From Shigella phage phi25-307: 64,000 nucleotides of DNA. The position numbers and the translations under genes are program-made. How positions within the stretch are numbered: position 1 is the stretch's first letter; every line of letters begins with the position of its first letter. Shown in pieces: positions 2,321 through 62,919 of this stretch. The notes under the pieces are model-generated. The model made no database searches and was not told the origin of the DNA. It worked only from the letters and a program-made list of their open reading frames with translations. The stretch lies in the sequence record MG589383; one strand, given 5' to 3'.

Positions 2321-3489
2321 CAGTATTCCAACGTCCAGGATATCCTAACTTAAGCGTTAAATTATATCAAGATTATTCGGCTTGGCAAGAAAATAGATAT
2401 GTTGAACTCGCAGCAACAATAACAACTTTAACCATGCGAGATTCGCTATATGGAAGAAATGAAGGGATTCTTCAATTTTATGACACTAAAAACATCCACA
2501 CTAAAATGGATGGTAGACAGATAGTCCAAATCTCTGTTTCAAATTCAAACACACCTCTCCAAGTTAGAACTCGAATTTATGGATGTAGACATTATTCTGT
2601 GTCTGTGGACTCAAAAGGTGACAATATTATTGCAATTGAGCTTGGAACAATACATTCTATAGAGAACCTTAAATTTGGGCGACCATTCTTCTCAGACGCA
2701 GGAGAATCTATACGTGAAATGTTAGGTGTCATATATAAAGACCGTACGTTAATTACTCCGCCAATAAACACTATTAATGCTTATGTTCCTGATATTCCTT
2801 GGACAAGCACATTTGATGATTATTTGGCATATGTCAGAGAATTAGGACTTGCTACAGCGAGTGATAAGTTCGTATTCGTATGGCAAGATATTTTAGGCGT
2901 AAACATGATTGACTATGATACTCTTATTGGTCAGGAAGGCATTAAGATGGTTGTAGGTGAGCCAAATACTGTAGGTCAGTATATTCAAGAGCTTGAGTAT
3001 CCATTAGTATGGGATTTCACCTGGATGACTAAAGCTAACCAATTTACAAGAGACCCTATTAAAAACGCCACGATATTCGCTCATTCATTTTTAGATACAT
3101 CTATTCCGGTTATTGTTACAGGCGATGGTGATAATGCTATTCTTGTGTCAAGATCAGGTGGATATTCCGAAATGACCTATCGTAATGGATTTGAAGAAGC
3201 AAGTCGTCTTCAGACAATGGCTCAATACGACGGATATGCTAAATGCACTACTACAGGTAATTTTAACATAACGCCTGCTACTAAAATTATATTTGTTGAC
3301 CAAAAGAACCAATTCAAATCCGAATTTTACGTAGATGAAGTTATTCATGAGTTATCAAATAACAACTCGCAAACTCATCTGTACATGTTTACCAACTCAA
3401 TGGTGTTAGAACCTGTTAACCCAGTTAAGGTTAAAAATGAACTTAAATCTGATTCTACCTCTAAAGAAAATAATTCTACCACAGTCTAA
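2317..3489 (+). CDS. 27: baseplate hub subunit gp27 (390 aa)
   Basis: Size and synteny (T4 gp27 391 aa); ATGA start/stop overlap with gene 51. Confidence 0.88.
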
Positions 3490-3970
3490 TAAAAAGGTAA
3501 TGATTCCCAAATTAGGGCTCAAACATTATAATCTTTTAAAGGACGTTAAAGGCCCTGATGAAAACATGAAAATCTTAGCAGATTCTATTTGTAAAAATAT
3601 GAGTCCAGCAGATTTTGATTTTGCATGTCTACACATATTGGAATTTAATAACAAACTTAAGTCTGAAGTTGAAAAAGATGGATTCACTTATAAACTAGAT
3701 GACGTCTATGTATGCCAACGAACAGAATTCCAATTTCAAGGTAATACTTTTTATTTTAGACCCCCGGGCAAATTTGAACAATTCGCTACAATCAGTGAAA
3801 TGCTATCAAATTGCTTAATAAAAGTTAATGACGAAGAGAAAGAAATTTCTTTCCTTGAGATGCCTGCTTTTGTAATCAAATGGGCAGAAGACCTTTCGAC
3901 AACTATTGCTATTCCAGGCCCTAATGGCCCTATTAAGGGTATAGCAGAAATTATTGGATTGCTTGAATGA
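3437..3970 (+). CDS. 28: baseplate hub distal subunit gp28 (177 aa)
   Basis: Size identical to T4 gp28, synteny; overlaps 3-prime end of gene 27. Confidence 0.82.
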
Positions 3971-52316: not shown

Positions 52317-54530
52317 TTATTTGGCCGCTTCCACGGCCTTCATGAATTTAACGATTTGAGCGACCTGTTCTTTGGAAAGAGTACCACGTCGTCCCATGTA
52401 TTCTGACACAATATGATAATTGGTTTCGAATTCAATAACCATTTTATCATCATTATCGTAAGCATTATCTTTAAGCTTATCGAAAATTTTAGCACACAAT
52501 TCTAACTTCTTATTCAGGTCTGTATTAGTAGCACCTGCGAATCGATTCCATCCCCAACGATTATTTACTGTTGAGAGTTTTGCAAAGTCTTTACTGATTT
52601 CTTTGTTCTTAGAGCTAAAATACTTACTAAGGAAGTTAAGCTCTTCGTTACGAGTAATATGATTCAAATAAGGCTGTGCTCTACGACTTGGTGATACATA
52701 CTCATCATAATCCACTTTGTCAATTAGCGTAATATAGTCATTAATTGATTTTTCGAACAAGCATTCTACTTCACCAAGTTTACGAACTTTCTTAGCAATC
52801 TGTGGACGGACTACAGTGAACTCTTTAATACCTGACAAATCAGCAATACGAGTCAAGAAACTAGAATCATAGTTCAACCAACCTTTATCTGCGTCAAGAC
52901 ATTCGGCGTTAGAACGATTACGAATTACAACATAACCTTGAATCTCATCGGCTTTACCGGCCGGAATAAAGAGATCTTCTGATACCCAAACATCGTTTTC
53001 ATTCTTAAAGAACCGATGAGCACTTGGGGATTTAGGACGAGGCTGCGATGAACGTTCTTTAACTTCAATCCACGGTTTAACTAATGCAAGAATTTCAGAG
53101 GTCTTATAAAATTTAAGGCTATCACCAGCGAAAATAACCTTTAATCGTTCTAGAAGTTTCATTGCAACTTCATCTTCCGGATTAACGAATAATACGCTAC
53201 TACCCCATCCGGAAGGAACCTTATCAACGAGTGTTGATGCATCGGTGGAAGTCAAAGCATCGTTCAGAGCACGCATCATTGGTACGCGGCCTTTCACATC
53301 GTCAATAACAATATCAATATGCTTACGACTAATACCTAGCAGGCTATTAATTGAAATAGTTGAAGACGAGCTTCCGCTTTCACGAATACGACGAAGTCGT
53401 GGATCTGAAACGATATCGTATACAACACCAAGGTTGCACCATTCAGGTCCCATTTTAAACCGTTTGTACAACTCAGAATAAGTTAGCTGTTCTTTAGAAT
53501 ATTTCAGTGATTCAATATTAGAACCGGCTTTTTCCATGTATTTACGAGCAGAGTAACCAAGAGAATCGATTTCACGGAATACATGACGTGGATATTCACA
53601 ATCAATCCATTTCTTAGAATCTTCAGCAAATAATTTTGCATCGATTTCTGCAACACGTTTATGGATATTTGCTACTGTACGTTTATCAAATGACAATGCT
53701 TCACGAGACGGGGCTACATCTAGTTCACCCATAGGGAATTTAATATAAGCTGTAGTGCATCGCGTCATCATCCATGTTTGTTCTTTAATAACACTTCCGA
53801 TTGGATATACAATACCACCATAAACAGCCATGATATTACCACGTTCACCCCATGGAGCTTCCTTGGCTAAATAAACATCATCGAATTCCGGGAAGTATTT
53901 GATATCTTTAACACCACGAACTTCTGCAATATCGCCGAGAGGACGCATAACATATGCAATTTCAGATGCGAACTTTTCAAAATCTTCTGGGTTAACCGGT
54001 ACAACTACTTCTACACCCGTACGGTCATCAGGGCCCATCTTATCTACAAAGGTTGGCTTAATCTGTGGACCGCTGTCATCTTGATAAATTACATAACCAC
54101 GAACTTCACCGTTGTGATAAGACGTAAGGTTAAACGTATCGGTATACGCTAGTGGAGCTTTAGAGCCGAGTCCGAATCCACCAATGAAATCGTTACTCGA
54201 TGTTTTAGTTGAAGCAAAATATGAATTATAGATTCCTGGCTCTTCGTCATTACCTCGAATGGTGAAATCACTCATACCAGGACCAAAGTCTCGAACTACA
54301 AAACGTGGGTCTAAACGACCTGGAGCCTGAACAATAAACTTATCAGTGCAACCATTAAGAATTTGACCATCGATACAGTTTGTGATTAATTCGCGTACAC
54401 AAGCCAATTCTTTGTTTGTATAAAGGTCATTAGACAAAATCTTATAAACTTTGCTATTGCCTTGAATAGTAAATGCTGTGCTCTTATCGCCTGAACCAAT
54501 AATCGTTTCTTTAGCCGTTTCAATAATCAT
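52317..54530 (-). CDS. rIIA: rIIA protein (737 aa)
   Basis: Collinear with T4 rIIA (CVRELITN, GRLDPRFV.RDFGPGMSDF, DFIGGFGLGSK, GPQIKPTFV, IYGGIVYPI). Confidence 0.93.
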   Translation of the reverse strand: MIIETAKETIIGSGDKSTAFTIQGNSKVYKILSNDLYTNKELACVRELITNCIDGQILNGCTDKFIVQAPGRLDPRFVVRDFGPGMSDFTIRGNDEEPGIYNSYFASTKTSSNDFIGGFGLGSKAPLAYTDTFNLTSYHNGEVRGYVIYQDDSGPQIKPTFVDKMGPDDRTGVEVVVPVNPEDFEKFASEIAYVMRPLGDIAEVRGVKDIKYFPEFDDVYLAKEAPWGERGNIMAVYGGIVYPIGSVIKEQTWMMTRCTTAYIKFPMGELDVAPSREALSFDKRTVANIHKRVAEIDAKLFAEDSKKWIDCEYPRHVFREIDSLGYSARKYMEKAGSNIESLKYSKEQLTYSELYKRFKMGPEWCNLGVVYDIVSDPRLRRIRESGSSSSTISINSLLGISRKHIDIVIDDVKGRVPMMRALNDALTSTDASTLVDKVPSGWGSSVLFVNPEDEVAMKLLERLKVIFAGDSLKFYKTSEILALVKPWIEVKERSSQPRPKSPSAHRFFKNENDVWVSEDLFIPAGKADEIQGYVVIRNRSNAECLDADKGWLNYDSSFLTRIADLSGIKEFTVVRPQIAKKVRKLGEVECLFEKSINDYITLIDKVDYDEYVSPSRRAQPYLNHITRNEELNFLSKYFSSKNKEISKDFAKLSTVNNRWGWNRFAGATNTDLNKKLELCAKIFDKLKDNAYDNDDKMVIEFETNYHIVSEYMGRRGTLSKEQVAQIVKFMKAVEAAK

Positions 54531-54542
54531 ATTTTTCTCTCA

Positions 54543-54743
54543 TCACAAGTTACGTTTAAAAATTTCTGCTACTTCAAGAAGTTCTTCTTTAGTAGCTGTA
54601 TCGGTTTGTATTTTATATCGAATTTCCTTAAAGCGTTCTTTAAAGGCTTCAGCTGATTCGATATCAAAAAATCTTTGGATAAGCCGGAATTCCCGGAGCA
54701 CAGCTTTATCAAAAAGTTCCAAGTCCACGTTATATGTTCTCAT
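54543..54743 (-). CDS. hypothetical protein rIIA.1-like (66 aa)
   Basis: ORF immediately upstream of rIIA; SD GAAGAGAAT. Confidence 0.5.
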   Translation of the reverse strand: MRTYNVDLELFDKAVLREFRLIQRFFDIESAEAFKERFKEIRYKIQTDTATKEELLEVAEIFKRNL

Positions 54744-54835: not shown

Positions 54836-55936
54836 TTACGCTGTGAAGATTTTATCCCACATCGCAACAACTGCATCTCGGTTATACTTCTTCCATACTG
54901 CTTCAGCACGTTTAACTCGAGCTTCGTATGTATCAGTGAATTCTAATACAGCTTTTGTGTAAAGCGCAACTACTTCTTTCTTAGGAGTAGAGGAATCAAT
55001 TTCTACACGCACAGTATCTGGGTCGTATTCAAATGTCGCATGAGGATAATCCTTAAAAACTAACTGGATTACAGGGACACCTTTAGAGATGGCTTCAATA
55101 GAACTATTCTCTACCGTACCTGTGTCAGGACATGTATTAATAAGTGCTTTAGCTGTTTTAAGACGTTCCATGATTTCACTGTGTGGAGCATCAATAATAA
55201 CAGGATATTTAGCTGGTGGTGCCCATTTGCTTGGACAGTATCCTACACCATTTTCGCCTAGTGCTTTAATCGCTTCAAGAGCAACATCAGTACGACGCAT
55301 TTTAGTGTCATAACGTTGTGCACTAATAATCAGATCAGTCGCCGGAAGAACTTCAGGTTTCTCATTCAAACAAATAACCGGATAATCTTCGGCTTCAAAC
55401 AACGGATTTGCTCGCCAATAATCATAATCAATTTTGTCAGTCAGAGCTGAAGTCATATGGCAATATTTACGTTCAAATTCACGGAAGGCTTTAGTAGGAG
55501 CATAACTCTTACCGCCATTCTTATGAATTTGAATAGTCTGGTCCCAAATTTGAACAATGCCACGAGATACCGGTTCAAATGGTGTTGCCATAAAATTCTT
55601 ATGAACTTTAGAGAGACCTGCGTCTTTAATTGCCTGAACGGTTAGTTTAGTCGGTTCCATAGTAACAACAAAATCGTATTCATGGATGCCGGCTAGTTCA
55701 ACAATCTTACGAGCCATAGTATAACTCATACCTAGACTGAATTTAGTCAGATGACCAACAGGATGGTGTGTAACTTTCCAGTCACCAAACGTGTCATTAT
55801 CAAAGCCGATATAATCAATATCAGCACCAATGGACACAAGATATTTCAACACATTTAAATGTACTGCTTCAAGGCCACCTTGTACACGGTCAGGATTAAA
55901 TGGGACTGCACGAGATGGGATAAACATAACTTTCAT
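54836..55936 (-). CDS. GT-B fold glycosyltransferase, GT4-like (366 aa); candidate DNA-hmC sugar transferase
   Basis: N-terminal GG.E motif (RVQGGLEAVHLNVLKYL) and C-terminal GT4 donor-binding signature (ENSSIEAISKGVPVIQ); position between rIIA.1 and gene 39. Confidence 0.6.
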   Translation of the reverse strand: MKVMFIPSRAVPFNPDRVQGGLEAVHLNVLKYLVSIGADIDYIGFDNDTFGDWKVTHHPVGHLTKFSLGMSYTMARKIVELAGIHEYDFVVTMEPTKLTVQAIKDAGLSKVHKNFMATPFEPVSRGIVQIWDQTIQIHKNGGKSYAPTKAFREFERKYCHMTSALTDKIDYDYWRANPLFEAEDYPVICLNEKPEVLPATDLIISAQRYDTKMRRTDVALEAIKALGENGVGYCPSKWAPPAKYPVIIDAPHSEIMERLKTAKALINTCPDTGTVENSSIEAISKGVPVIQLVFKDYPHATFEYDPDTVRVEIDSSTPKKEVVALYTKAVLEFTDTYEARVKRAEAVWKKYNRDAVVAMWDKIFTA

Positions 55937-55978
55937 AATTAAGCCTTATTAAAATTAAAATGAAGCTCCCGAAGGAGC

Positions 55979-56791
55979 TTAGGACATCCAACACATTTTA
56001 TAACCTTTGCAGGTTCTGTTAGGATTATTTAATGCTTTCAATATATTAGAAGACCCTATATCTAAATACTCCCTTAATTCATAAAGATAGTTAAAATCAA
56101 TAGTTTCACCTGTTTTTACACTTGTGATTCTTATAGGCCTTCTTTCATATTTAGATTTATACAACTCTCTAGTCTTAGCTTTAGTTTCTTCTGACCTAGG
56201 AGTGTATGGTTTAAATCCTTTTGTTTTAAATGTTTCCATTCTTGATTTAGTTATTTTATCCTGGTGTTCTTTTGTTTTTACAGGTGCTTTTCGCCCATTC
56301 TCCCAAGATAACTTGTTGGCCTGTATTATTTTATCTATTGCTTCTTGCGTATGAGTTTTACCATAAAATGGATTTAATTCGCCTATACGTTGTGAAGCAA
56401 TATGTGACATTAATTCTCTTGTTGCTTTAGTATGTTTTTTACCTTTAAATGGGTTGCCATTTTTAGCAATCCATTCTTTCATAAATCTAGAGTGCTCTTT
56501 AGAGAATTCTTGTTTAAGCCAATCATAATCTCTAGAATTTCTAGCTCCCATGTAAAAAGCTCTAATAGCCATAAGCATAGAACGGTTCTTATGAATTTTA
56601 TAAAGCAATAAATGGGCGATAAAATGCTCTCTAGGGGTCATTTTAACTAGATTTGATTTAGCATTACTCCCACCCATAGATTTAGGCAAAATATGGTGAG
56701 TTTCAGTATAATTAGGAATAGTGCTGCGGTTTTTAGCCGCAGCGATAAGTTTATCATAAATTTTACGATAATTCATTATCCTAGCATCCAA
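55979..56791 (-). CDS. free-standing HNH homing endonuclease, Mob-like (270 aa)
   Basis: HNH core (TETHHILPKSMGGSNAKSNLVKMTPREHFIAH) plus repeated NUMOD-like DNA-binding modules (NPFKGKKHT, NPFYGKTHT); overlaps 3-prime end of gene 39 by 16 nt. Confidence 0.8.
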   Translation of the reverse strand: MDARIMNYRKIYDKLIAAAKNRSTIPNYTETHHILPKSMGGSNAKSNLVKMTPREHFIAHLLLYKIHKNRSMLMAIRAFYMGARNSRDYDWLKQEFSKEHSRFMKEWIAKNGNPFKGKKHTKATRELMSHIASQRIGELNPFYGKTHTQEAIDKIIQANKLSWENGRKAPVKTKEHQDKITKSRMETFKTKGFKPYTPRSEETKAKTRELYKSKYERRPIRITSVKTGETIDFNYLYELREYLDIGSSNILKALNNPNRTCKGYKMCWMS

Positions 56792-58596
56792 TCTTTACGG
56801 AGTTCAGGGTCGTTACCCATGAGCATTTCAAATAGTTCTTTCCAATTTTCAGGAAGTTTAACTACGTCGTACACAGGGTTTTGAATCATTTCTTTATATT
56901 CATCCCGCTGAAGTGAGCCCAATCCCTTGATGTATCGAATACTATGCTTAGGCAGTGTATCTTTGGCTTCTTCATACTCAGCTACAGTATAAAACCATTT
57001 TTGAGTTTTGCCAATTTGTGCAATAATTACAGGCGTTTTAACAAAGCGAATACGTCCTTGTTCAAACAATTCAGGCCAATTACTAAAGAAAGCAAGCAAA
57101 GCCGGATAAATACTTCCAAGACCGTCATGATCGGCATCGGTCATAATTGCAATATTACGATAGTTCGTATTCTCTGCCTTTTCACCAAGAATAAGACCTG
57201 TGATAGCACAGATATCAAAGAGCTCTTTGTTCTTCATCATATCAGCATATGACATACCCCAGCTATTCATCACCTTACCACGTAATGGGAATCCACCGTG
57301 TAGTTCACGGTCACGAACATCAATGAGATAACCAATTGCCGAATCACCTTCTGTTAAAAACAATGTCGTATCTGCATCTTTACCACATTGGTTAGCTTTA
57401 ATATGCTTATGAACCTTAGCTTTAGTTGCCTTTTTAGCTGCTTTAGTTTCTGCAGCCTTTTCTGCTGCCAATTTACGAGCTAATGCTGCTTCAACAATAG
57501 GCATAATCAAAGCTTCATTTTTAAGAAGTGCCTGAGCAATTTTCTTAGCATCTAATTGGATATGATTACGAATATCACCATACGTTGACGTTAAACGTTC
57601 TTTAGTCTGAGAATCAAAACGCATGTTGCTCATGTCTCTAATAAACATCAACATTGTGAGGCATTCTTTAACACGAGCTTTAGTGACTTCAATACCCTTA
57701 TATTTCTTTTTAATACCGGGCAAAAGATGTTCGCAGATATCATCCATTACACATTCAACATGATGACCACCATTTTTAGTATGGATGTTATTCACATAAG
57801 TTAAATGACGGAAGCCATCTGGTGATGTTGTGAATGCTATAGAGACTTTATCATTTTCTTGAATGATGTTATCTTCGCCAAATTGTTTAGCAAATCGTTT
57901 AAAATTACCATCAACCTTTTTACCATTAAATGTGAACTTGATATCAGGATAAACGACTGCCAATGTTTGAAGACGGTCTAAAGTAATATCTAAATAAATT
58001 TGAGATAAATTATGCTCTTCAAATGAAGAGAAATCAGGAGTGAAGATTACTTTAGTGCCTTTACCTTTAGATTTCTTAGAAGACCATGATTTGTTTTCCA
58101 TTCCGTTTGAACAGTTAACAGTGATTTCATTTTCGCCATCTGACGTGATGCCTGTAAACAACGTAGAGAAGATATTAGTTAAACTACTCCCGACGCCGTT
58201 CATACCACCAGTCTTGCGTTCAGAGTCATCACCAAAGTTACCACCGGCCTTTGGAATAGTCCAGGCCGCTACAGGCCCAGGAATTTGTTCACCTGTTTGG
58301 TCGGTAACTAAACCTTGAGGAATACCACGTCCGTTATCTTCCACTGAGACTTGATTATTTTTAATTTGCACATCAATTTTATTTGCAAACTTAAATGATG
58401 TACGAATAGCTTCATCAACCGAGTTGTCAATAATCTCATCGATTAATTTAACAAGACCAGGAACATATTCAACTTGTTGATATTTACCAAACAAAAAACG
58501 CTCATGGGCTTCTTTAGCCGAAGAACCAATATACATGCCACTGCGTTTCTTAATATGTTCTACATCTGACAATACCTTAATTTCATTTTTAATCAT
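56776..58596 (-). CDS. 39: DNA topoisomerase II large subunit, fused 39+60 type (606 aa)
   Basis: GHKL ATPase N-terminus collinear with T4 gp39 and Toprim C-terminus collinear with T4 gp60 (AIMTDADHDGLGSIYP.LL.FFSNWPELFEQGRIRFVKTPVIIAQ) in one uninterrupted frame. Confidence 0.93.
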   Translation of the reverse strand: MIKNEIKVLSDVEHIKKRSGMYIGSSAKEAHERFLFGKYQQVEYVPGLVKLIDEIIDNSVDEAIRTSFKFANKIDVQIKNNQVSVEDNGRGIPQGLVTDQTGEQIPGPVAAWTIPKAGGNFGDDSERKTGGMNGVGSSLTNIFSTLFTGITSDGENEITVNCSNGMENKSWSSKKSKGKGTKVIFTPDFSSFEEHNLSQIYLDITLDRLQTLAVVYPDIKFTFNGKKVDGNFKRFAKQFGEDNIIQENDKVSIAFTTSPDGFRHLTYVNNIHTKNGGHHVECVMDDICEHLLPGIKKKYKGIEVTKARVKECLTMLMFIRDMSNMRFDSQTKERLTSTYGDIRNHIQLDAKKIAQALLKNEALIMPIVEAALARKLAAEKAAETKAAKKATKAKVHKHIKANQCGKDADTTLFLTEGDSAIGYLIDVRDRELHGGFPLRGKVMNSWGMSYADMMKNKELFDICAITGLILGEKAENTNYRNIAIMTDADHDGLGSIYPALLAFFSNWPELFEQGRIRFVKTPVIIAQIGKTQKWFYTVAEYEEAKDTLPKHSIRYIKGLGSLQRDEYKEMIQNPVYDVVKLPENWKELFEMLMGNDPELRKDWMLG

Positions 58597-58641: not shown

Positions 58642-58660
58642 CAAAAAGGGCCGAAGCCCT
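58642..58660 (-). terminator. terminator (GGGC-UUCG-GCCC, U-tract) upstream of gene 39
   Basis: Minus-strand hairpin followed by TTTTTGC; abuts stop of ORF 58660-59085. Confidence 0.5.
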
Positions 58661-59085
58661 TATTTAAATTTAATTTTCTGAAGTGCATCAATTGCAGCCA
58701 AACGCCCTTGTTCACTTTTAACTGTAATGACCACATCGCCTGATACGATCACCGAACCATCAACAAATTCTATAGAGCCTTTTTTGAAATCGACAGATGT
58801 ATCTGGTTCCGGAACTTCTTCAAAGAATTTAAATTCTGCACCATAAAGCAGAATATCACCTTGCATACTATGAATAGTTCGGCCATAATCGCCTACGGCT
58901 TCTACAGCAATCACAGAAACGCCGTAACCAATCATCTCTTCCACAATAAAATCTTTGGACAATAAAGTAGTATGCAGATTAGTATTAAGACGTTTACCAG
59001 TCGTATTAAGAATTCTCAAGAAATTATCTTCCTGTCCTTTGATAATACGATATTTCTTACCAACTTCAAAACCTTTAAAAGCCAT
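58660..59085 (-). CDS. hypothetical protein (141 aa)
   Basis: ORF; terminator hairpin at its 3-prime end. Confidence 0.5.
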   Translation of the reverse strand: MAFKGFEVGKKYRIIKGQEDNFLRILNTTGKRLNTNLHTTLLSKDFIVEEMIGYGVSVIAVEAVGDYGRTIHSMQGDILLYGAEFKFFEEVPEPDTSVDFKKGSIEFVDGSVIVSGDVVITVKSEQGRLAAIDALQKIKFK

Positions 59086-60918: not shown

Positions 60919-61596
60919 TTATCGCTGTTTTACACTTAACGGGTCAGGATTTTCAGGGACATCTTCAAGGCCAAGCGCATAACGCTGAGCATATTTTAAC
61001 ATCAAAATATCTTTAGCACAATCATGAATACTATCATGGGCAACGAATCCTTTTAACGTACCCAACGGTAATGGACACATACTTAATCCTCGTGTCAACG
61101 AGTAAGCTTCGATTGCCGTACGAATATCGCGTTGAGCCCAGAATTTAACCGGTTCTAATTTATCAGTATCAATCTCTGGTTCAGGAACACCTTCATCACG
61201 ATAGAGGTCACGAATCAAATCGACTAATATCGGGAAGTCAAAGCTCATACCACGGCACCACATCTGTGATTTCCATTGGTCAACTTTATTAGCTCGACAA
61301 TAATCTAAAAAGATTTTAATGCCTTCAAGCGTAGTGACATCGTCTTCAGACGGAGCCAAGTTTTTACGTGCTTCAGCCGATTGTTCTTTCCACCATTTCA
61401 TAGTGGATTTAGCGAAAACTCGCTTCCCTTTCTGAGAAGCTAAATTAAATTTAATTCGTTTACCTCGTTGAACAAGTTCTTCAAATGATTCAACAACTTC
61501 AGGGTCGGAATTATATGCAATAACCGCAAGGTCAATAACAGCCGCTTTTGATGTATTGCCGAATGTTTCAAAATCTATAATAACATCAGTGCTCAT
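60919..61596 (-). CDS. dexA: exonuclease A, DEDD family (225 aa)
   Basis: DEDD exonuclease motif I (IIDFETFG) and later H/D motif; size and synteny with T4 DexA. Confidence 0.88.
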   Translation of the reverse strand: MSTDVIIDFETFGNTSKAAVIDLAVIAYNSDPEVVESFEELVQRGKRIKFNLASQKGKRVFAKSTMKWWKEQSAEARKNLAPSEDDVTTLEGIKIFLDYCRANKVDQWKSQMWCRGMSFDFPILVDLIRDLYRDEGVPEPEIDTDKLEPVKFWAQRDIRTAIEAYSLTRGLSMCPLPLGTLKGFVAHDSIHDCAKDILMLKYAQRYALGLEDVPENPDPLSVKQR

Positions 61597-61605
61597 AATT
61601 TTCTC

Positions 61606-62919
61606 TCAAATAAAATGGACGTCAAACCGGCCACGAGTTGTGCCGACATACAATAACTGTTTAGCTAATTCTGAATCGGCATAATGGATACACGGTGTAT
61701 AAACAAAGGCCGTGTCAACAGACATACCCTGGGCCTTATGGAAGGTTGATACTGGTAGTGCCTTCACCTTAGTGAACATACGTTTAGCATCCCAGAATTC
61801 GCTCCATGGAGCTTTACCACCTTTATTCCAAAATTTGTATGTTTCTGCGGTCTTAGCCAAAAACAAATTGAATTTATAAAGCTCTTCTTCAGAAGAAATA
61901 ACCTTTATATCTTCGCGGATGTATTCTTCATCATCCCCATATGTTTCTACTGTAAGATTCCAGTATCGTATCATATATTCGCCCGAAACACCACGTGCTT
62001 TAACGAATGTAGACGTTTCTACAGCATCTCTAATACGAACGAATTGGCCGTTATTGAAAAGCATTTCGGTAATATTTTTACCATCTAGCTTATATGTCTT
62101 AGTAAATGGCTCCTGTAGAACAATGACTTCGTCTTTAATAAATGGTTTTTCTGTTTCAAGAAGTTTTCGTCGAATAATTGAATTTAACTTGTCCACCGAC
62201 TTATTTGTGAATGCCATCATTCGATTTTCGAAAAGGTCTTCAGGAGTTTTAACGACGTTAAAATAGTTCATCATATACGATTTAAGGTCTGTATATCCGT
62301 GAACACCATGTCCATCAACTACTTTATCGTAAATCCATTTGCCATTACGAATATCAGTAGCAACATCAATAATTGGTGCATTGCTACGTTTAACTTCTGT
62401 AAGGTTGCATTGCACGAAGTCTTTGTGAGTGAAGAAAGGACTTAGATACGCAGTTGATTCGCCTGGGTCTACCGGACGAATCTGGCATCGGTCGCCGATG
62501 CCAATTACTGTACACCATTTAGGGATACTAGCTAACATTATTTTAAACAGAGAACGGTCGCACATTGACGCTTCATCAAATAACAGTACACGGCACAAGG
62601 CTAGGTCTGGAACCTTTTTCTGTTCAAACAATACGTTTTCTTCGTATGTAGTTGGGTTGATTTTAAGAATGCTATGAATAGTCGATGCTTCTTGTCCCGC
62701 AAGTTTACTTAGAACCTTTTTAGCGGCATGTGTAGGGGCTGCTAAAATAATACCTGATTCTCCAGAAGAAATAAGGGCTTCAACGATGAATCTAGTAAGG
62801 GTTGTTTTACCTGTACCAGCAGGCCCATTAATAGTTACGTGATGTTTCTTTTCTTTAATAGCGTTCATAACAACGTTGAAGGCGTTTTTCTGGCCTTCAG
62901 TCAAATCATCAAATGTCAT
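61606..62919 (-). CDS. dda: Dda DNA helicase, SF1B (437 aa)
   Basis: Collinear with T4 Dda (MTFDDLTEGQKNAFN.VM.AIKEKKHHVTINGPAGTGKTTLT, STFHKAQGMSVD.AF.YTPCIHYAD). Confidence 0.94.
   Translation of the reverse strand: MTFDDLTEGQKNAFNVVMNAIKEKKHHVTINGPAGTGKTTLTRFIVEALISSGESGIILAAPTHAAKKVLSKLAGQEASTIHSILKINPTTYEENVLFEQKKVPDLALCRVLLFDEASMCDRSLFKIMLASIPKWCTVIGIGDRCQIRPVDPGESTAYLSPFFTHKDFVQCNLTEVKRSNAPIIDVATDIRNGKWIYDKVVDGHGVHGYTDLKSYMMNYFNVVKTPEDLFENRMMAFTNKSVDKLNSIIRRKLLETEKPFIKDEVIVLQEPFTKTYKLDGKNITEMLFNNGQFVRIRDAVETSTFVKARGVSGEYMIRYWNLTVETYGDDEEYIREDIKVISSEEELYKFNLFLAKTAETYKFWNKGGKAPWSEFWDAKRMFTKVKALPVSTFHKAQGMSVDTAFVYTPCIHYADSELAKQLLYVGTTRGRFDVHFI

Follow-up and report, generated by a model that had tools for sequence, protein, structure and literature searches.

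A probable homing endonuclease gene of the Mob HNH type within the final two codons of topoisomerase gene 39 in Shigella phage phi25-307

Results

The window analyzed here is a stretch of 64,000 nucleotides (nt) from Shigella phage phi25-307 (sequence record MG589383), and the subject is the 3' end of its topoisomerase gene 39, where a gene for a probable Mob-type HNH homing endonuclease is located. Gene 39 (56776-58596, minus strand) encodes the fused large subunit of topoisomerase II, a protein of 606 amino acids (aa). Its open reading frame (ORF), as sequenced, is free of stops and frameshifts between 56776 and 58596, and this single frame holds the HATPase_c, DNA_gyraseB, Toprim and TOPRIM_C domains of Pfam (the Toprim match was below the cut-off, and that of TOPRIM_C was just below it). 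T4 gp39 was aligned to residues 1-474 (375 of 473 positions identical) and T4 gp60 to residues 473-604 (110 of 132). The gene is collinear with gp39 plus gp60 and with the 605-607-aa genes of phages F2, RB18 and RB69. As in other genes of the fused (T2/RB69-type) class, the ATPase, transducer and Toprim domains make up one polypeptide. An initial annotation, made from the letters of the window, had described the ATPase and Toprim domains as one uninterrupted 606-aa frame; the ORF, the Pfam matches and the alignments with gp39 and gp60 all agree with it.

MobA elements always insert at residues 466-491 of the topoisomerase large subunit, thereby splitting the gene, and they add C-terminal and N-terminal extension (CTE/NTE) tails and a 50-nt bypass cassette (Manning & Atkins, bioRxiv 10.1101/2022.08.31.505936). 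The equivalent of the MobA insertion and hop site, as defined in that study, is TGLILGEKAENTNYRNIAIMTDADHDG (57121-57201, minus strand), and it was uninterrupted in the alignment with T4 gp39 and gp60. DADHDG and LGSIY are contiguous at residues 487-496 (...IAIMTDADHDG followed directly by LGSIY...); there is no split at residues 466-491, and the 50-nt bypass cassette is absent after DADHDG. The initial annotation had treated this as a telling, "pre-split" arrangement. The fused gene is, however, the usual state in T4-like phages; since RB69, RB18 and ca. 130 close relatives share it, its presence here is not informative about such a stage.

Comparison with relatives that lack the HNH gene defined an 800-bp insertion (55985-56784, minus strand; boundaries ambiguous by 6 nt) that falls after codon M604 of gene 39. 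Alignment with the same relatives located a direct repeat of TGGATG at its ends. The left copy (56785-56790, minus strand) comprises codons W603 and M604 of gene 39, and the right copy (55985-55990, minus strand) comprises the penultimate W and M codons of the HNH gene. In the HNH-less allele, gene 39 ends in ...CGTAAAGAATGGATGTCCTAA, followed by the hairpin GCTCCTTCGGGAGC, and the protein ends in ...RKEWMS-stop. In the window, the end of gene 39 reads ...CGTAAAGATTGGATG, joined at the insertion boundary to CTAGGATAATG..., and the protein ends in ...RKDWMLG-stop, the S-stop having been changed to LG-stop. The end of the HNH ORF reads ...TGTTGGATG, joined to TCCTAA and then to the same hairpin, and its product ends in ...CWMS-stop. 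The last three HNH codons and the stop (WMS-stop) derive from the old end of gene 39; the HNH ORF terminates in gene 39's original TGGATGTCCTAA plus the hairpin. This UUCG terminator-like hairpin (AAGCUCCUUCGGGAGCUU, 55963-55980, minus strand), which is followed by a U-rich tail, is the original terminator of gene 39 and is now located 3' of the HNH gene; its sequence comes directly after gene 39 in the HNH-less phages F2 and RB69.

The HNH ORF occupies 798 of the 800 bp of the insert, and HNH-less alleles differ by exactly this insert. With an insert that is approximately the ORF alone, the gene is free-standing, i.e. not part of an intron or an intein (no search for intron RNA was run). The G+C content is 31.8% in the insert, 36.9% in gene 39 and 39.6% in the downstream gene, an ortholog of RB69 ORF003c; the lower value of the insert is in keeping with a foreign origin. 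It had initially been proposed that the HNH gene adjoins gene 39 without interrupting it. The 800-bp gap in the HNH-less relatives and the TGGATG repeat show instead that the cassette interrupts gene 39, within its last two codons.

The HNH gene (55979-56776, minus strand) encodes 265 aa from the ATG at 56776. The longest version of its ORF begins at TTG 56791, and only that start gives the 16-nt overlap with gene 39 that had been described at first. Judged comparatively, the conserved start is ATG 56776, because the N-terminus of the family is MNYxKxY, because the identical genes of phages phiE142, AV109 and fPS-90 are annotated at 798 bp, and because T4-type MobA begins likewise. This ATG overlaps the stop codon of gene 39 by one base (TAATG, in the context ctAGGAtAATG). 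The Shine-Dalgarno sequence is weak (AGGA, 2 nt from the ATG); other free-standing endonucleases of T4 also have poorly spaced start signals (PMC2988022).

The protein comprises an HNH domain (H27/H28, N42, H51), a pair of NUMOD3 repeats and, at the C-terminus, a beta/helix module. Pfam NUMOD3 (PF07460) was matched in two stretches (E = 5e-9; 36.4 bits, cut-off 20.4), in keeping with a modular DNA-binding region of the NUMOD3 type (NPFxGKxHT...), and PHROG 655, "homing endonuclease", was matched with E = 1e-55. When only the single sequence was used, the Pfam HNH_4 match was below the cut-off (16.6 vs 22 bits), and the PDB search yielded a marginal match to McrA only (E = 0.38). The family profile matched the HNH domains of Cas8f-HNH, McrA and a group II intron maturase in the PDB (E ca. 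6e-5); it also matched the DNA-binding domain of I-TevI (1i3j) at positions 121-161. The AlphaFold2 model (mean predicted local distance difference test score 85.8) forms strands from residues 25-28 and 43-46 and a helix from residues 48-62, such that the His...Asn...His motif is carried on a beta-hairpin plus helix, as in the HNH (beta-beta-alpha-metal) superfamily. Its best fold match in the PDB was the homing endonuclease I-HmuI (1u3e), with a probability of 1.00. Residues E25, H27, H28, N42, H51 and H55 were invariant in a 41-sequence alignment of relatives, and the nuclease looks intact by these comparisons; the presence of the catalytic residues on proper alignment was a point on which the initial annotation had made its assignment depend.

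The N-terminal domain (MNYxKIY...HHIxPxSMGG...NLVxLTxREH...LLYKIH), followed by a variable C-terminal DNA-binding region, is that of the T4 Mob family. Among the tblastn relatives were proteins annotated as mobD (35.6% identity over 186 aa) and mobE (58.5% over 62 aa), and residues 1-71 were 61% identical to MobA. Together with the PHROG match, these similarities bear out the early description of the gene product as a Mob-like HNH protein.

In a first search, 18 records matched the whole region, and ca. 130 relatives at 97-98% identity, RB69 and F2 included, lacked exactly 800 bp; HNH carriers amount to ca. 12% of close relatives. The HNH protein was found at an aa identity of at least 98.9% in 26 phage records, in every case directly 3' of the gene for the topoisomerase large subunit. 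Its presence at this one genomic site is sporadic (26 records with it, ca. 130 close relatives without it). Of the three groups of carriers, one consists of close relatives of the window, one is the AV109 group, and the third consists of Tequatroviruses (fPS-90, F1, FN, FL12, BYEP01 and CJY920). Eight copies of the 798-nt gene were examined; all ORFs were open, with 0-4 nt differences, whereas the 5' part of gene 39 differed by ca. 25-33% between the backgrounds in which these near-identical copies reside. Window-type sequence accompanies the cassette for limited distances. It reaches ca. 690 nt upstream and ca. 300 nt downstream in the AV109 group and ca. 340-390 nt upstream in the Tequatroviruses, where the switch point differs from phage to phage. 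Flank co-conversion in divergent backgrounds, a hallmark of homing, is therefore seen in AV109 and in five Tequatroviruses, the latter with a shared illegitimate junction. Separately, the first ca. 1140 nt of gene 39 in AV109 diverge from the window by ca. 33%, which is more than T4-type genes do (ca. 25%).

That junction was the same in five of the five Tequatrovirus carriers examined. Downstream of the HNH stop, these phages have a hairpin of RB69 type, then the intergenic spacer and 58 nt from the start of ORF003c, which they otherwise lack. The microhomology CTGACC links this 58-nt piece to a residual copy of the phage's own gene 39 end, TTCGTAAAGAATGGATGAGCCAGTAG. Such an arrangement fits break repair from an RB69-type donor, with homologous recombination towards gene 39 and an illegitimate join where homology was lacking. 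A single transfer from an RB69-type to a T4-type phage, with subsequent spread among Tequatroviruses, would fit the data best. The hitchhiked start of ORF003c is fused in frame to the gene 39 remnant in fPS-90 (locus L006, ca. 3440-3515), resulting in a chimeric ORF of 24 codons (MKVMFIPSRAVPFNPDLRKEWMSQ, then a stop). The same chimeric ORF occurs in loci L024-L026 and L011 and is probably meaningless; the annotation of FL12 calls another small ORF there, which starts earlier (L025, 2987-3082).

Among 5.8 billion proteins, the only full-length homologues were P0002, P0003 and P0004 (41-45% identity). All three are metagenomic, and each is encoded directly 3' of a topoisomerase large-subunit gene, in different T4-like phages. 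The topoisomerase gene is full-length and fused (606-607 aa) beside P0002 and P0003; the contigs of P0004 are short and contain the 3' part of the gene only. P0002 overlaps the end of the topoisomerase gene, after which a remnant of the gene 39 end (TTCGTAAAGAGTGGATGAATCAATAG) follows. P0003 begins 35 nt downstream of the topoisomerase gene, after a hairpin, and P0004 overlaps its topoisomerase gene by 4 nt. IMG/VR was scanned with the alignment of the clade. Of the best 80 relatives, phiE142 alone adjoined a topoisomerase gene (0 of the 79 others); these were general HNH/NUMOD3 proteins that included no new carriers, and they serve as a negative control. Because four divergent lineages of the clade are positioned at the gene 39 end and none of the 79 other IMG/VR relatives is, the 3' end of gene 39 is, judged from these placements, a recurrent site for this HNH clade specifically. 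The earlier suggestion that the topoisomerase 3' end is a landing zone for homing endonucleases is upheld to that extent.

In some phages, there are further genes at the 5' end of gene 39 as well. In the AV109 group, the gene 39 start is overlapped by the ORF of a 227-aa NUMOD3 protein (L003, 4593-5276), and a 235-aa protein with an Endonuclease VII domain is encoded just upstream of gene 39 in a metagenomic T-even phage (L012, 1144-1851).

When gene 39 of the window was compared with that of the HNH-less phage F2, 23 mismatches were found in the last 150 nt vs 24 in the first 1659 nt (Fisher p = 8e-14). Two clusters of changes were delineated. Cluster A (56893-56914, minus strand; LEKSEYR to LQRDEYK) is located ca. 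110-130 nt upstream of the insertion and is linked to the HNH gene. Cluster B (56791-56833, minus strand; LLGDDSELRKE to LMGNDPELRKD) occupies the last ca. 45 nt of gene 39 and is a candidate target or immunity region. At both clusters, the HNH-less alleles of RB69 type and T4 type are closer to each other than to the carrier allele, and the haplotype with both clusters (A+B+) was present in 26 of the 26 carriers. The two clusters may be a target/immunity region, or they may be hitchhiking alleles.

Matches to sigma-70-like promoters were at the level of chance (10 found vs 11.3 expected). With regard to T4 late promoters, none (TATAAATA) was located upstream of the HNH gene, and only TATAAAAT occurs, within that gene. 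The notion of a late promoter borne by the cassette was dropped, as TATAAAGA, which is linked to the HNH gene and belongs to cluster A, does not match the consensus. Two further strings were observed: TTGCTTTATAAAAT (56596-56610, inside the HNH gene), which resembles a MotA-box/late-promoter-like string, and a second TATAAAAT at 56002, ca. 60 nt before the start of ORF003c. Both could be embedded promoters for ORF003c. A second hairpin with a UUCG tetraloop (AAGGGCUUCGGCCCUU, 58646-58661) is located upstream of gene 39, so that two such hairpins (with AAGCUCCUUCGGGAGCUU downstream) bracket the gene; terminator-like sites are enriched in the stretch (6 observed vs 1.3 expected).

On the minus strand, the order of genes is dda (61606-62919), dexA (60919-61596), several small genes, gene 39, the HNH gene, a 366-aa ORF (54836-55936), rIIA.1 (54543-54743) and rIIA (52317-54530). 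The 366-aa ORF is the ortholog of RB69 ORF003c (362 of 366 aa identical, 98.9%), which is a candidate transferase for arabinosyl-hydroxymethylcytosine (ara-hmC; PMC6024577). Because this ortholog is present, the phage from which the window derives probably has ara-hmC DNA. The stretch around the locus was 98.4% identical to phage vB_EcoM_SQ17, and the window is that of an RB69-like (Mosigvirus-type) T-even phage. F2, JK45 and phiE142 were 97.6-99% identical to the window in the region of the locus, ORF003c included; the taxonomy lines of their records (NC_054913, NC_054940 and NC_055709, respectively) read Tequatrovirus or Carettavirus, and these labels look inconsistent. JK45 (L004, 837-1247) has an extra ORF of 136 aa without a Pfam match between ORF003c and rIIA.1 that is found neither in the window nor in F2.

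Discussion

The HNH cassette probably encodes a free-standing homing endonuclease of the Mob (HNH) family that is active or was mobile until recently. Comparison with the HNH-less alleles shows that the cassette supplies gene 39 with a new LG-stop, brings a weak Shine-Dalgarno sequence and an ATG that overlaps this new stop, and reuses the old stop codon and terminator of gene 39. Expression of the endonuclease would be weak and would rely on the transcript of gene 39, with translation of the two ORFs coupled. In a co-infection, it would nick or cut HNH-less alleles of gene 39 within their last ca. 150 nt, and recombinational repair from the HNH-bearing genome would then copy the cassette along with variable lengths of its flanks. 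The carrier allele would be protected by the insertion itself, by clusters A and B, or by both. Whether the target truly lies within the last ca. 150 nt of gene 39 we judge to be an evenly balanced matter. The leftover gene 39 ends of the Tequatroviruses and of metagenomic locus L012 would place a break 26-32 nt or more upstream of the gene 39 stop, and the mosaics of SP21535 and JM17 point towards cluster A as the neighborhood of cleavage.

Several considerations weigh against this account. The location of the target is inferred from sequence, and the cassette could in principle have spread through general T-even recombination instead of endonuclease-driven homing. A T4 late promoter (TATAAATA) was sought upstream of the HNH gene, and none was found. 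A hairpin over the Shine-Dalgarno sequence and AUG of the HNH gene was no better than those of shuffled sequences (z = -1.1); no claim is made that the ribosome-binding site is sequestered. The A+B+ haplotype also occurs in the HNH-less phages NHEP36, LF82-4, TH12 and OLB35, and partly in JM17 and SP21535; thus, the clusters may be ordinary alleles and not immunity changes. The same observation undermined an attempt to pinpoint the cleavage site from the junctions and mosaics.

These HNH-less alleles take different forms. In NHEP36 (L021), the A+B+ haplotype is combined with an exact empty site (GATTGGATGTCCTAA), which could be either the product of excision between the TGGATG repeats or a pre-insertion allele. 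In LF82-4, TH12 and OLB35, it is combined with a 19-nt footprint (GATTGGATG CTTGGTTAATTGATAG ATGTCCTAA) that encodes DWMLG-stop and may be the scar of an older or deleted cassette. In these three phages (L019, L020 and L022, ca. 850-880), gene 39 terminates in DWMLG-stop, and the footprint (CTTGGTTAATTGATAG ATG) comes between this end and the old TCCTAA. Of the two clusters, JM17 and the Tequatrovirus SP21535 have A but not B. In SP21535 (L010, 2180-2500), the last ca. 400 nt of gene 39, cluster A included, are a patchwork of RB69-type and T4-type sequence, which may reflect partial conversion or recurrent switches of template at the locus.

The HNH protein might alternatively be, in the main, a weapon of competition that brings about marker exclusion by cutting the essential topoisomerase gene of related phages, its spread being a side effect. 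Many phage homing endonuclease genes target the neighborhood of essential genes, as this one does (Barth et al., PMC10055350), and it is exactly at the end of the gene that the haplotype of the carriers departs from HNH-less alleles of both RB69 type and T4 type. Sequence alone cannot separate a weapon from homing, but carriage by ca. 12% of close relatives and the apparent loss alleles are more readily explained by a selfish element than by a gene of benefit to the phage, and we regard the weapon as improbable.

According to the initial annotation, the locus is an un-invaded, pre-split form of the gene 39/60 region in which a MobA-like endonuclease is parked at the gene end instead of splitting the gene. 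The T4 MobA element (mobA plus the gene 60 bypass cassette) is reportedly the subject of work by Bonocora and colleagues from 2011. It and the HNH element are both free-standing Mob-family HNH genes tied to the gene for the topoisomerase II large subunit. Both overlap the upstream ORF, appear without a promoter of their own and show recent spread within clades. The proposal could further draw on the fused gene 39 with its intact MobA/hop region, on the 61% identity of the nuclease domain to that of MobA, and on distant relatives that reside inside the split 39/60 genes of Acinetobacter phage AC4 and Shewanella phage Thanatos-1. The fused gene is the norm, however, and the insertion at residues 466-491, the CTE/NTE tails and the bypass are all absent from the window. 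The HNH element is located 336 nt downstream of the hop site, after codon 604, where it interrupts the last two codons without splitting the enzyme, of which only the final residues are changed. Its similarity to MobA ends at residue 71; the C-terminal part beyond has NUMOD3, which Pfam did not detect in the MobA-type proteins of CJY920, AC4 and Thanatos-1. Most tellingly, CJY920 (L011, 182-3841; PQ349265.1, an UNVERIFIED record) has two HNH cassettes in one topoisomerase gene: an intact MobA of 272 aa (1713-2531) with the gene 60 hop, and a window-type HNH gene (3044-3841) at the end of gene 60. Because both cassettes coexist there, MobA and the HNH element are independent and not alternative states. 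The parked-MobA proposal is largely refuted by these data and is unlikely to hold.

It is very unlikely that the HNH gene is a defunct or domesticated passenger that is inherited vertically, moves by ordinary T-even recombination and has no endonuclease-driven mobility today. In favor of a passenger, two of the 26 copies (AV118 and ECO111 5-P) matched in two tblastn pieces with possible frameshifts, and loss is suggested by HNH-less alleles that have either the flanking haplotype of the carriers or the 19-nt footprint. Against it, none of the eight copies examined has an interrupted ORF, and no more than 4 of 798 nt differ among them across backgrounds that diverge by 25-33% nearby; the catalytic residues are invariant, and the illegitimate junction of the Tequatroviruses resembles break repair and not homologous exchange.

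A recently mobile homing endonuclease at this site has counterparts among known systems. T4 MobE, MobD and the other free-standing Mob/Seg endonucleases, which practice "intronless homing" (Edgell et al. 2010, PMC2988022), are likewise located at or between conserved essential genes and share with the HNH element expression from an upstream operon, overlapping or poorly spaced starts, co-conversion of flanks and sporadic presence. The HNH element differs from MobE and MobD in that it is found at the 3' end of gene 39 and not at nrd genes, in that its lineage is distinct (nearest full-length relatives at 41-45%), and in that its ORF is fused to the last codons and stop of the host gene. In Aeh1, a Mob-type HNH gene, mobE, is reported to be placed inside an essential and still functional gene, nrdA (Friedrich et al. 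2007, cited in PMC2988022). According to that account, nrdA is split into two polypeptides, whereas gene 39 has its last codon and stop replaced and is not split. I-HmuI, the best match of the predicted model, is a nicking homing endonuclease of the HNH type that is encoded by an intron of Bacillus phage SPO1; it has a cysteine-free HNH motif and an extended modular DNA-binding tail, as does the HNH protein. P0004 had a sub-threshold Pfam match to the NUMOD-like domain of I-HmuI (PF22083; E = 0.00046, 20.2 bits vs a cut-off of 27 bits). By contrast, the gene for the HNH protein is free-standing, and only ca. 89 columns could be aligned with I-HmuI, at 19% identity.

In the literature searched, no paper that analyzes the HNH element was found; the genome paper on phiC120 only lists a "homing endonuclease with NUMOD3". 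Databases already annotate the gene as "homing endonuclease", and the lineage is previously undescribed in the literature searched. The element is of an ordinary kind, and the general picture of intronless homing is unchanged by it. It constitutes a second, independent lineage of homing endonucleases at the T-even topoisomerase gene, beside the MobA/hop cassette. It also exemplifies a gentler invasion of an essential gene, in which the last two codons are hit, a replacement stop is supplied, and the stop and terminator of the host gene are borrowed.

A broader proposal is that the HNH lineage is dedicated to the conserved topoisomerase end that encodes ...LRKEWM, that it cuts both arabinosyl-hmC (RB69-type) and glucosyl-hmC (T4-type) DNA, and that it thereby drives gene flow between RB69-like and T4-like phages. 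We offer this tentatively, as a possibility that is rather less likely than its negation. If it were true, the HNH gene could serve without modification to introduce targeted breaks into hypermodified T-even genomes, and it would drag neighboring DNA, such as pieces of the arabinosyltransferase gene, across the RB69/T4 barrier, which has been described as blocking recombination (PMC6024577). The Tequatrovirus copies, with their microhomology junction, hitchhiking gene fragment and duplicated gene end, are a fossil of transfer from an RB69-like donor, and this fossil is relevant to the extent to which homing endonucleases wear down the barrier to recombination that has been reported between RB69 and T4.

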